Below are positions 6,001 through 9,000 of a stretch of DNA of 13,210 nt, piece by piece; the stretch's first letter is position 1; each line of letters opens with the position of its first letter. The stretch lies in the IMG/VR virus record IMGVR_UViG_2671181040_000012. The stretch is one strand, 5' to 3'. The position numbers were made by a program. The DNA comes from a virus (Duplodnaviria; Heunggongvirae; Uroviricota; Caudoviricetes).

Positions 6001-9000
6001 GCGGGTTATGCGGGTTATTTCTGTGGATAAGTCAGTATCCATTTGATTATTAAAGAAATGACAGAAAAATCGTAACCCGCAAAATACCCCAAATAACCCG
6101 CAAATGGGCCTAAATAACCCGCAAAAGCGCGATTATAACCCGCAAAATATCACTGTAATGGATGAAAAAAGGCCGGGTGTAACCCACACGGTTCTGTAGA
6201 TATACAAAAATTGAGGTGTTTTTATGTTTCTTGAAGCCATACCAAAAAGCATTTCTCCGGCTGTTCCTGGCTGGTGGGCAAGATTCCGGAATGACGATTG
6301 CGGCGAGTGGTGGAGTCCGGTTGCTGCATGGGCGATTTGCGATGTGTTTTATTCCGGTGATTCTGAGGTTTACTCTGAAATATTACCGGTACTCACTGGT
6401 GATATGGGAATGACACCACATCACAGCGCAGAGGGATATTGCGAATGCCTGTATTTGCCTGACACAAAATTCATTCTTTCAGATGAACCGGGAACGCTTG
6501 CATGGTATCCGGCTAACAGCACAGCGGAACAGGTGACAATCATCAACGTTAAAACCGGAGAGCAGACAGCATGACAGCACAGATAGCGGCTTACGGGCGG
6601 CTGGTGGCTGACCCGCAGTTAAAGACCACCAGCAAAGGGACACAAATGGCGATGGCGAGTATGGCGGTTCCCCTGCCGTGCAGCCAGGCGGATGACGGAA
6701 CGGCGACGATGTGGTTATCCGTCCTGGCGTTTGGCAGACAGGCCGACGCACTGGCAAAGCACCACAAAGGCGAACTGGTGAGCGTGGCGGGTAACATGCA
6801 GGTAAGCCAGTGGACAGGCCAGAACGGCGAAACGCGGCAGGGCTGGCAGGTTATCGCAGACAGTGTAATCAGTGCCAGAACGGCACGACCGGGCGGTAAA
6901 AAAGGCCAGCAGGGCCAGGCTACTGACGCACTGAACAGGGCAAAACAACAGGCGGGAAATGATGACCCGTACGGGGATAACATCCCGTTTTAATTCACAA
7001 CAGCGAACAGAGTAATTACAGGGGAAGGCATGACAAAGCTGACCATTAACCGAAAACCGAAAGGCATTTACGGCACGCAGCCAGAAACGACGCAGGCGGT
7101 GCAGCAGCAGGATAAAACCACATCGGCGCATAAAGTGATACCCGGCAATCAGAACACACAGCAGAGCCGCAAACAGAAGCCCACAGAGGCGACACCGTGG
7201 CGGCATATGACCAAACGCCAGCGCAAAAACCGCAGGCGCGTTAACCGCCTCACTGAGATGTGGCCTGACTTATTCAACAGGGAAGCGCCAAAGCCGCTGA
7301 AGGTGGGAATATTCGACGACCTGATGCAGGATATCGCCGCCAGGGGGCTGACATTCGGGCCGGGGGCATTACGTGCAACGCTGGCATCTTATGCGCAGTC
7401 TCCGCGCTATTACCGCGCCCTGATAGCTGGTGGTGCACGTTATGACCTGAAAGGCCAGCCATGTGGGGAAGTGACACCACAGGAACAGCAGGAGGCAGAA
7501 ACGCGGCTGATGGCACTGAATGAGAAGCGTAAACGCCGGACAGCAAAGGAGAAGACAGGCGCATGATTCACGACAGCAAAGCGGAAGAACTGGAGGCTAA
7601 AGGGCTGTACCGGAGAGCGGCGGCGCGGTGGGCTGAGGTTATGCAACTGGTGAACACCGATAAGGAGCGCGAACAGGCGGCAAAGCGTCGCGCGGAATGT
7701 ATCCATAAGGCAGCACGCCCACCCGTTATAGCGGATAACTTCGGGGCACTGAAAGAGGCTGTAAAACGTACTCATGCGGGAATGGGGATGGAAGACGCAG
7801 GTAAATCTGTCTGGCGGAACTATCCGAAGCAGCCGAACAACAACCAGTGATGCAGGATATTATCCTGAAAAATGACCATCACTCCCGTGGGCGGATAACA
7901 TAAAATTCTGCATATGCGCACACACAGACGAAGCCGGAACACTCCGGCTTTTTTTGCGGGTCCTCCCGGTGGGGTACCCTTGCCGCGGGGCGGCGGACGC
8001 GCGGAAAAAGGCTAGTTTTTGAAATTTCATTCGTCATCACCACAACTGTAATGAATTGATATTCAATATGTTTTATTTTTCTGGTGTCGATTTTGATTGT
8101 TTTTTGTTCATCGCTAACACCATTTATCTAAAGTTGTTCGCAAGATGCATGTTTAAAACATTCTGGAGCGGATATGGATCGAGAGTTAAAAAACCATCCC
8201 CTTCCCACCGTAAAAACTGCGCATCGATGTTAAGGATTGTTAAGGTGTTTTGCGCAACATTCGCGATAACCATGTTTAGAAATGCCAGGGTTATTTGCGT
8301 AAAAATGGCAGGCAGTGCAGGAGATTCACCAGGGGGAGAATTCGCAACCAGACATCAGGAATTTATGTCAGAGCTTAGCGGGATATGGTGTTATTGAAGG
8401 ATGGAAACAAAGCGACGACGGGAACGCCGCCGCTTGTTTTAATAATTTAACGAGACGCTAAATTACATATAGGTAACAGTCACTGGCAGGGAAGCTTTCC
8501 ACTGAATCTGGTCATCACTGGCCACAGCATTATTAAGAGTGATGGTAATGGCTTTGCCCTTTTCGATACCAGCGCCGTAAACACCAAAGAAGGTGGCGTT
8601 ACTGTCATCAAACTTTTCTACGCCAGTATCGCTCTGCATCTCACCTTGTTGTTTCCATTTCGTAACGAAATCAGAAGATAATGCGCTAATCAATCCCAGA
8701 GCCTCATTATTGCGCACAGCGGCAGCATTTTCCCCAAGACCGCCGTAGAATGCATCACTATTATCAGCGGCATATAATGCCTTGGAGCCTGTCTCTGAAC
8801 CGTCACTTGTTAACCAGGAAGATAAAGCAGCAGCAGAGAAGGGAGCGGTCATAGTGCCAATAGCGCTTCCTGATACATCCCGGACTGATAAAGTGACCGT
8901 AGTTACTCCGTTATTAAAACCGTTTATATCAACAGCATTGTTATAGCTAATTTGAGGTTTTATACCTTCACCTCCGGTAAAACCATTAACATCGGCATTA

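Follow-up and report, generated by a model that had tools for sequence, protein, structure and literature searches.

Why would a phage satellite line up, directly behind its replication origin, genes for a single-stranded DNA (ssDNA)-binding protein (SSB), a FinO-domain RNA-binding protein and a PerC-like regulator? The question is posed by IMG/VR record IMGVR_UViG_2671181040_000012 (Caudoviricetes), a stretch of 13,210 nucleotides, hereafter the window, which matches with 100% identity a chromosomal island of Escherichia coli MB06102 located between yejM/tRNA-Pro and yejO. A first, sequence-only reading took the four genes at 6224-7956 for one translationally coupled cargo operon of unusual composition, perhaps devoted to anti-phage defense or helper interference. 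The analysis reported here favors another answer: with a probability of about 0.6, the four genes are the distal end of the rightward, replication-side block of a ~14.4-kb satellite of the phage-inducible chromosomal island (PICI) type, and they comprise three cassettes for which distinct roles can be proposed. This architecture is ordinary for a satellite; the point worth following is a conserved, translationally coupled FinO-PerC pair.

Four genes, three cassettes

All four genes lie on the + strand: open reading frame 1 (ORF1; 6224-6574), the SSB gene (6571-6993), the FinO-domain gene (7030-7566) and the PerC gene (7563-7850), with a Shine-Dalgarno-like motif seen before each start on direct reading of the sequence. 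The SSB-like, FinO/ProQ and PerC-like labels given to three of the products at the outset hold, PF00436, PF04352 and PF06069 all scoring above their thresholds. Joining of the genes by stop/start overlaps holds at two junctions, the ATGA at 6571-6574 (ORF1/SSB) and the ATGA at 7563-7566 (FinO/PerC), but not at the third: the SSB and FinO genes are separated by a 36-nt spacer. Translational coupling, also proposed at the outset, is borne out by conservation: of 52 FinO/PerC junction variants collected at other loci, 50 keep an ATGA or GTGA overlap with AGGAG ~10 nt upstream, and the junction between the SSB gene and the small ORF before it is as strongly conserved.

The block ends in a clean intrinsic terminator (7931-7956, + strand), just as first described: a hairpin, GAAGCCGGA-ACAC-UCCGGCUUU, followed by a U tract. 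The 9-bp GC-rich hairpin (7931-7950) has a folding free energy of -19.9 kcal/mol and a z-score of -2.9, is equaled by none of 200 shuffles (0/200), and recurs in the centroid structure of a 180-nt fold. A hairpin with a T-run follows PerC within at most 350 nt in 32 of 52 other FinO-PerC loci; the examples examined include several clearly different sequences. The pattern scan for promoters and terminators overlooked the real terminator at 7931-7956, and its promoter part was uninformative.

Does one transcript cover the block? The traits of a single operon are present: one strand, short or overlapping junctions, and one terminator at the end. From alpA to PerC, the pattern scan of the + strand gives weak terminator-like sites only, at 2920 and 6971, and we infer from the sequence that the four genes are transcribed from upstream, along with the replication genes. 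The second of these sites is the sole internal + strand terminator-like site that the scan reports within the four-gene block: a weak hairpin (6971-6988), followed by UUUUAAUU, which overlaps the codons of the SSB C-terminal DNIPF tip. It may lower read-through toward FinO-PerC, or simply be a by-product of the protein motif.

Are the four genes also one functional unit? Gene content, junctions and frequencies, all read directly from the DNA, argue instead for a mosaic of three independently assorting cassettes; because the unit is a mosaic, the description “four-gene cargo operon” is only partly right. One seam runs through ORF1 (116 aa), which is chimeric. Its first 100 residues belong to a rare family and are unrelated to the small ORF that usually stands upstream of the SSB gene, and its last 16 (AEQVTIINVKTGEQTA) are the tail of that usual small ORF, carrying the SSB ribosome-binding site. 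DNA matches in other E. coli genomes begin inside ORF1, at query position 300 (window position 6523). ORF1 has no Pfam or NCBIfam match, its sole match being phrog_27268, a family without assigned function, and no fold assignment was obtained for it. Its homologs form nine clusters only in a large protein collection; those inspected, in E. coli and Salmonella islands, stand directly before FinO-PerC without an SSB gene, in loci that come after a DUF927 or D5-type primase. ORF1 can thus be pictured as a rare leader gene that elsewhere precedes FinO-PerC and that recombination would here have fused to the SSB cassette. The SSB cassette would span 6523-6993, comprising the 3' end of the small leader ORF and the SSB gene, and would form the near-constant part of the mosaic. 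The remaining cassette is delimited by a conserved DNA block that runs from ~7020, the FinO ribosome-binding site, to ~7800, with both flanks diverging; it therefore brings a ribosome-binding site but no upstream non-coding DNA. FinO-PerC (~7020-7850) would accordingly be an optional regulatory pair without a promoter of its own, and the conserved stop/start overlap would cause the two proteins to be made in fixed proportion.

How often do the pieces meet? Of 5426 complete E. coli genomes, 1660 contain a match to some part of the region and 20 a match to the whole of it at 80% coverage or more, which suggests that the four-gene combination is a rare recombinant. FinO-PerC alone matches 362 of these genomes (226 at no less than 80% of the pair), at 429 places, all chromosomal. 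In IMG/VR, best-scoring loci were collected around the SSB (80 loci) and around the FinO protein (76 loci). FinO-PerC comes after the SSB gene in 4 of the best 80 loci only, and neither FinO nor PerC does so in 68 of 87 (all loci with at least 1.5 kb downstream). In the FinO-anchored set, FinO is found downstream of replicase and origin in every locus that retains upstream sequence; PerC is next in 55 of 75 loci, SSB stands before FinO in 29 of 70 and ORF1 in 6, and FinO directly adjoins the origin in 19 loci. The most divergent FinO relative found (52% identity) still has the arrangement SSB-FinO-PerC. A scan of GTDB species representatives with a FinO alignment returned 2 loci only, too sparse for statistics: DUF927-SSB-FinO-PerC in E. 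albertii and primase-FinO-PerC in E. ruysiae.

The idea of four genes conserved as one unit does not survive these counts: the SSB gene usually occurs without FinO or PerC, and the full set is confined to the 20 genomes. The combination is unusual, as had been claimed, in its complete form only; an SSB gene followed directly by PerC was described for the O157 island OI-51 in 2012 (PMC3378721) and is a common arrangement among PICIs that form capsids. Independent occurrence of the genes, which had been named as a sign against a joint function, is indeed observed, but not in unrelated contexts: the cassettes always stand between the origin and the packaging/cargo region, share the strand of the replicase gene and belong to one class of element. 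As to whether the genes occupy a variable hotspot, content does vary at this constant post-origin position, with SSB near-constant there.

A near-constant SSB gene beside the origin

The satellite setting downstream of an origin was correctly recognized in the sequence-only reading. The iteron-type replication origin (5996-6148) sits between the replicase gene and ORF1 and consists of two inverted iterons (5996-6020) and four direct iterons (6072-6148; 21-bp period) with an AT-rich stretch between them (repeat families D1-D3, inverted pairs I1-I8); two iteron sets flanking an AT-rich stretch are the published origin layout of Gram-negative PICIs (PMC6092414). An integrase, AlpA, a replicase and a small terminase complete this context.

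The SSB (140 aa) combines a predicted oligonucleotide/oligosaccharide-binding (OB) fold, a short linker and a canonical C-terminal tip, ...DDPYGDNIPF. It matches PF00436 (E = 4.1e-16; 59.4 bits, cut-off 26), TIGR00621 (61.3 bits, cut-off 53.95) and phrog_44. E. coli SSB stacks W54, F60, W88 and W40 on ssDNA and has an acidic tip ending in IPF. The satellite protein is 26% identical to it and retains three of the four stacking aromatics: W48, F54 and W81 align with W54, F60 and W88, and W40 is not kept. Because the closest SSB in deposited phage genomes reaches at most 31% identity, the protein belongs to a satellite-specific lineage.

The SSB is near-identical in islands (loci L015-L094) whose replicase family and entire downstream content vary. 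Protein identity is 98-100% in the best 80 loci, which implies either strong constraint on the SSB gene or its frequent exchange.

What might the SSB do? In every SSB-anchored locus with upstream sequence the gene comes after the replicase, whatever the replicase type: RepA helicase, DNA primase or DUF927 (a D5-type primase is seen in the FinO-anchored set). From this position and ubiquity, the SSB most likely aids satellite replication: it would coat ssDNA opened by the satellite primase-helicase at the adjacent origin, and its host-like ...DNIPF tip would draw host replisome and repair proteins to satellite DNA. A parallel is offered by the F plasmid, which has an SSB gene, ssb, in its leading region: there, too, an extra SSB with a host-like tip is encoded on a mobile element. 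Unlike F ssb, the satellite gene lies beside an iteron origin, not oriT, and satellite DNA enters the cell double-stranded; no PsiB or ArdA-type genes are found among the window ORFs scanned.

Could the SSB and its neighbors instead form an anti-phage defense or helper-interference module lodged in a satellite hotspot? What lies between origin and packaging genes does vary among islands, PICIs are known to carry immune systems (literature cited in PMC13612085), and phage SSB-like proteins can, to judge from a bioRxiv preprint title, control activation of some defense systems. However, a PADLOC search of the four proteins and four neighbors (E up to 0.01) returned no families; effector domains, such as those of nucleases, toxins or NTPases, are absent from all four proteins; the SSB gene is near-universal at its position, not variable; FinO-PerC is a pair of small regulators; and the recognizable defense-type genes of sister islands (e.g., Abi_2) are found at the far right end instead. 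The defense proposal, with which the analysis of this locus began, thus fares worst among the explanations considered here: we regard it as highly improbable.

FinO, PerC and their possible targets

The predicted RNA-binding protein (178 aa) matches PF04352 well above the family threshold (E = 3.1e-24; 85.5 bits against a 27-bit cut-off). A variable K/Q/T-rich N-terminus and a basic stretch (TKRQRKNRRRVNRL) lead into the FinO domain (residues ~66-165), and the chain ends ~13 residues past it, without a ProQ-type C-terminal domain. Is this FinO itself, or a ProQ? NCBIfam cut-offs are unmet for both. FinO proper, the protein of F-like plasmids, was ruled out by a score of 69 bits against 136, together with the chromosomal location of all 429 E. 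coli places; a ProQ ortholog was ruled out by 57 bits against 127 and by the missing C-terminal Tudor-like domain. In the PDB the protein matches the N-terminal domain of ProQ (5nb9; E = 1.2e-12), FinO (1.1e-11), NMB1681 and RocC. It carries K, R, R, Y and R at the positions aligned to ProQ K35, R58, R69, Y70 and R80, which we take, on the basis of published ProQ and RocC work, to form the RNA 3'-end binding face; most of the pocket-aligned positions are invariant or nearly so in 18 homologs. In deposited phage genomes no relative reaches 80% coverage of the protein, and matches that extend along most of it stay below 30% identity. The protein would bind RNA ends made of a hairpin and a 3' tail, and would stabilize RNAs that the host, a helper phage or a plasmid provides in trans, or promote their annealing.

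The nearest described systems are FinO of F-like plasmids and FopA of IncI plasmids, which share with the satellite protein a single FinO domain, a basic N-terminal extension, residence on a mobile element and the RNA 3'-end pocket residues. They differ in that the satellite gene is coupled to PerC and that no FinP/traJ-like or Inc/repZ-like antisense pair is found nearby. ProQ supplies the best PDB match through its FinO domain but has a linker and a Tudor-like C-terminal domain that the satellite protein lacks. Identity to plasmid FinO, ~35% across the FinO domain, and the FinO-like architecture raise the thought that the pair acts in trans on plasmid antisense RNAs of the FinP or Inc kind, which govern fertility and copy number, or on prophage immunity RNAs, in competition with rival elements. 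FinO is indeed reported to bind RNA from a second plasmid (PMC8136791), and a protein for which no cis partner was found needs a target in trans. The idea is nonetheless speculative: it leaves the tightly coupled PerC without a role, and all of the E. coli places are chromosomal. We rate it as quite unlikely, if somewhat less so than a defense function.

What does PerC contribute? The protein (95 aa), whose start overlaps the FinO stop, is a PerC/Pch-family small regulator that matches PF06069 over its full length (E = 3.9e-36; 123.6 bits against a 22.6-bit cut-off). In this it resembles PerC of the enteropathogenic E. coli EAF plasmid and Pch of enterohemorrhagic E. coli prophages; it differs in that its gene sits behind a FinO gene. 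Identity to plasmid PerC-family genes is ~48%, and two close homologs, an 80%-identical protein and an 89%-identical fragment, are named “PchABC family transcriptional regulator” and PchE, respectively. Structure prediction gives a small three-helix protein (predicted local distance difference test score, pLDDT, 69), a likeness to the ANR family (e.g., Aar). The ANR model NF033650 covers residues 6-52 (E = 8e-4) at 19.2 bits, under the 32-bit cut-off, and PerC has an extra C-terminal half; even with this sub-threshold score, an ANR-like way of working may apply. PerC would act by binding proteins, as a small helical regulator of the Pch/ANR type, and would change how other horizontally acquired genes are transcribed. 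Among the known accessory genes of PICIs are PerC variants (PMC6092414). The PerC-like gene of EcCIMP1 represses LEE1, from the enterocyte effacement locus (LEE), and its counterparts in EcCIEDL933 and EcCICFT073 are without effect (PMC11773190); Pick et al. put forward an ANR-like mode for one satellite PerC homolog (PMC11773190). The outcomes for satellite homologs span from no effect on LEE1 to strong repression; of the roles proposed here, PerC's is the only one that the literature supports, and it does so just in outline.

Might the pair serve the satellite's own cycle instead, as an early-to-late switch? PerC with FinO would then turn on satellite packaging/capsid genes or helper late genes, FinO stabilizing or unmasking a transcript. 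The position of PerC lends this some appeal: it is the last gene before the terminator, and in capsid-forming PICIs, as in OI-51, the PerC gene has the SSB gene and the capsid/protease/portal block as its direct neighbors. A cassette without its own promoter would, moreover, be co-expressed with the replication genes, and some PerC-related PHROG families bear the label transcriptional activator. Yet most islands that share this SSB, 68 of 87, lack both FinO and PerC, capsid genes directly following SSB in many of them. Nor is the downstream side constant: FinO-PerC is followed by differing modules (a Nu1-type terminase, large ORFs without Pfam assignment, others), and PerC homologs produced on their own in a heterologous host act on LEE1 (PMC11773190). 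A late switch therefore strikes us as unlikely, although it is less so than either action on plasmid RNAs or defense.

The pair is not intact everywhere. In one DUF927-island lineage (L005-L014 and L165-L169), a 138-aa ORF without family assignment overlaps the FinO stop (~8479-9130 in L014), and of PerC a 49-aa remnant is left, ~1 kb downstream. The module has decayed in a satellite at yicC in E. coli ABU 83972 (8228-9744) and strain A41: in both, FinO is frameshifted and PerC intact, and the SSB gene of ABU 83972 is annotated as partial.

Which RNA could FinO hold? On the minus strand, the stretch 5900-8500 has 11 terminator-like sites against 2.7 +/- 1.6 in shuffles; hairpins of this kind are seen at 6927, 7171, 7200 and 7250, within the 3' end of SSB and the 5' region of FinO (6905-7250). 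The operon's own terminator hairpin is a possible ligand, though its sequence is not conserved across loci.

A number of findings count against the reading preferred here, in which the block is the replication-side end of a PICI-type satellite built of three cassettes. No cis RNA partner for the FinO protein emerged from Rfam, flank conservation or synonymous sites. Rfam, searched with a permissive threshold over the whole window, gave nothing relevant, the only hit being a sub-threshold STnc470 match outside the operon. Synonymous-site diversity in 52 sequences ranges from 0.06 to 0.26 with no suppressed stretch in FinO-PerC; an antisense RNA embedded in the pair was dropped as a candidate, since synonymous sites show no sign of an overlapping functional RNA. 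A conserved 3' untranslated region as FinO ligand was likewise rejected: conservation stops within PerC, and terminator sequences differ among the examples examined. The PerC model is of moderate confidence, and three-helix bundles match tetratricopeptide (TPR) repeats non-specifically. Transcription could start closer to the block than assumed, a promoter within the origin region being possible: the best candidate of a simple scan, a weak 9/12 match at 6058-6085, lies inside the origin, and that scan is evidence neither way. The replication role of the SSB is read from position and ubiquity only, and the host already has an SSB; furthermore, because some FinO-PerC islands are without the gene, the SSB is not essential. 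Finally, the IMG/VR loci were not drawn at random: each set holds the 76-80 with the best scores.

The island, its relatives and the meaning of the pair

What kind of element carries these cassettes? A 26-nt direct repeat, with copies 14,382 bp apart, brackets an island of ~14.4 kb. At one end lies the integrase gene (1-1242), followed by AlpA in the same direction (1768-1974; PF05930, E = 4.5e-8) and then by a minus-strand YlcI/YnfO-family gene, an Icd-like gene, a DUF4222 gene (3537-3851) and, directly upstream of the origin, a DUF927 primase/helicase-type replicase (3848-5971, + strand; PF06048, E = 3.4e-46; “DUF927 domain-containing protein” in RefSeq). Beyond the four-gene block lie a K88/F4-type fimbrial subunit gene (8463-9275, minus strand; PF02432, E = 5.7e-53), a Nu1-type small terminase gene (9820-10404; phrog_57, E = 2e-64), two small ORFs and a second PerC gene (12908-13210), the last of the window. 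The order integrase then AlpA and replicase then two-set iteron origin, a size in the ~10-15 kb range with direct repeats, and the lack of tail or lysis genes in the annotation or Pfam matches of the island are those of PICIs; integrase, AlpA, replicase, iteron origin, direct repeats and small terminase together identify the element, by its gene content, as a PICI-type phage satellite of E. coli. Capsid genes are absent from the window island.

Several features of the right half stand apart from the block. The fimbrial subunit is an orphan, the island having neither usher nor chaperone gene, and its gene has its own minus-strand terminator-like hairpin (8433-8415). The second PerC, near the right end of the island, is 39% identical to the first and adjoins a divergent 100-aa ORF (12491-12793, minus strand); the identical pairing recurs in locus L170. 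Between the small terminase and the next gene, 1.45 kb (10405-11856) are without an annotated gene, and the ORFs there have no Pfam match; this stretch could house a packaging site or decayed genes. The ORF that follows (11857-12171, + strand; phrog_1561) shares 75% identity with the one behind the terminase gene of O157 OI-51; it may be the published LEE regulator RgdR, although it could not be matched to the published RGD motif.

The best described relatives of the island are OI-51/CP-933C/Sp7 of O157:H7 (EcCIEDL933) and related PICIs, capsid-forming ones included. They have in common integrase, AlpA, Icd-like gene, DUF4222, replicase, origin, small ORF, SSB, a PerC-family gene (PchE) and packaging genes. 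The window island differs in having a DUF927 replicase in place of the RepA helicase, ORF1 in place of the usual small ORF, a FinO gene between SSB and PerC, the orphan K88-type subunit and the second PerC, and in lacking capsid genes. Flockhart et al. described the SSB gene followed by PchE in OI-51/CP-933C in 2012, and OI-51 as a whole influences LEE expression and colonization (PMC3378721). Two database records of similar elements call for comment. A 12,152-bp circular “plasmid” record (NZ_CP148430.1) bears a PICI-like set, namely integrase, AntA, DUF4222, Icd-like, TOPRIM-DUF927 and PerC, and probably represents a satellite that had been excised and was assembled in circular form. An OI-51-like satellite (NZ_CP031350.1, 31408-41692) lies beside chromosomal phoQ in a 187-kb record deposited as a plasmid, which suggests a misassembly or a mislabeled replicon.

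What, then, is new? The satellite type, the succession of SSB and PerC, and the presence of PerC in PICIs are already known. FinO/ProQ genes in PICIs appear in the literature searched as annotation remarks only (PMC13612085, PMC13230959), and the same literature yielded no study that addresses the function of PICI-borne SSB or FinO genes. The post-origin slot of these very common E. coli satellites can now be described as a near-constant SSB gene accompanied by optional, apparently promoter-less cassettes. One of these supplies a clean hypothesis about FinO-domain proteins of an unstudied group, which has no close relative in deposited phage genomes: their gene is nearly always joined to a gene of the PerC/Pch type, a family with a record of modulating the LEE virulence island. 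How could two such proteins cooperate? In a tentative proposal, to which we give about as little credence as to the late switch, FinO-PerC is a two-protein satellite regulatory cassette made in a fixed ratio: FinO would capture a helper, plasmid or host RNA by its terminator hairpin, and a TPR-like or ANR-like PerC would sequester a regulator or nucleoid protein, reprogramming helper or host expression upon induction. Were this true, it would add to FinO biology a new, satellite-borne branch with a protein partner. If the two proteins do not work together, the locus reduces to routine satellite annotation; if they do, post-transcriptional and transcriptional control would be linked on one mobile element, which might explain the inconsistent effects of PerC homologs tested alone.

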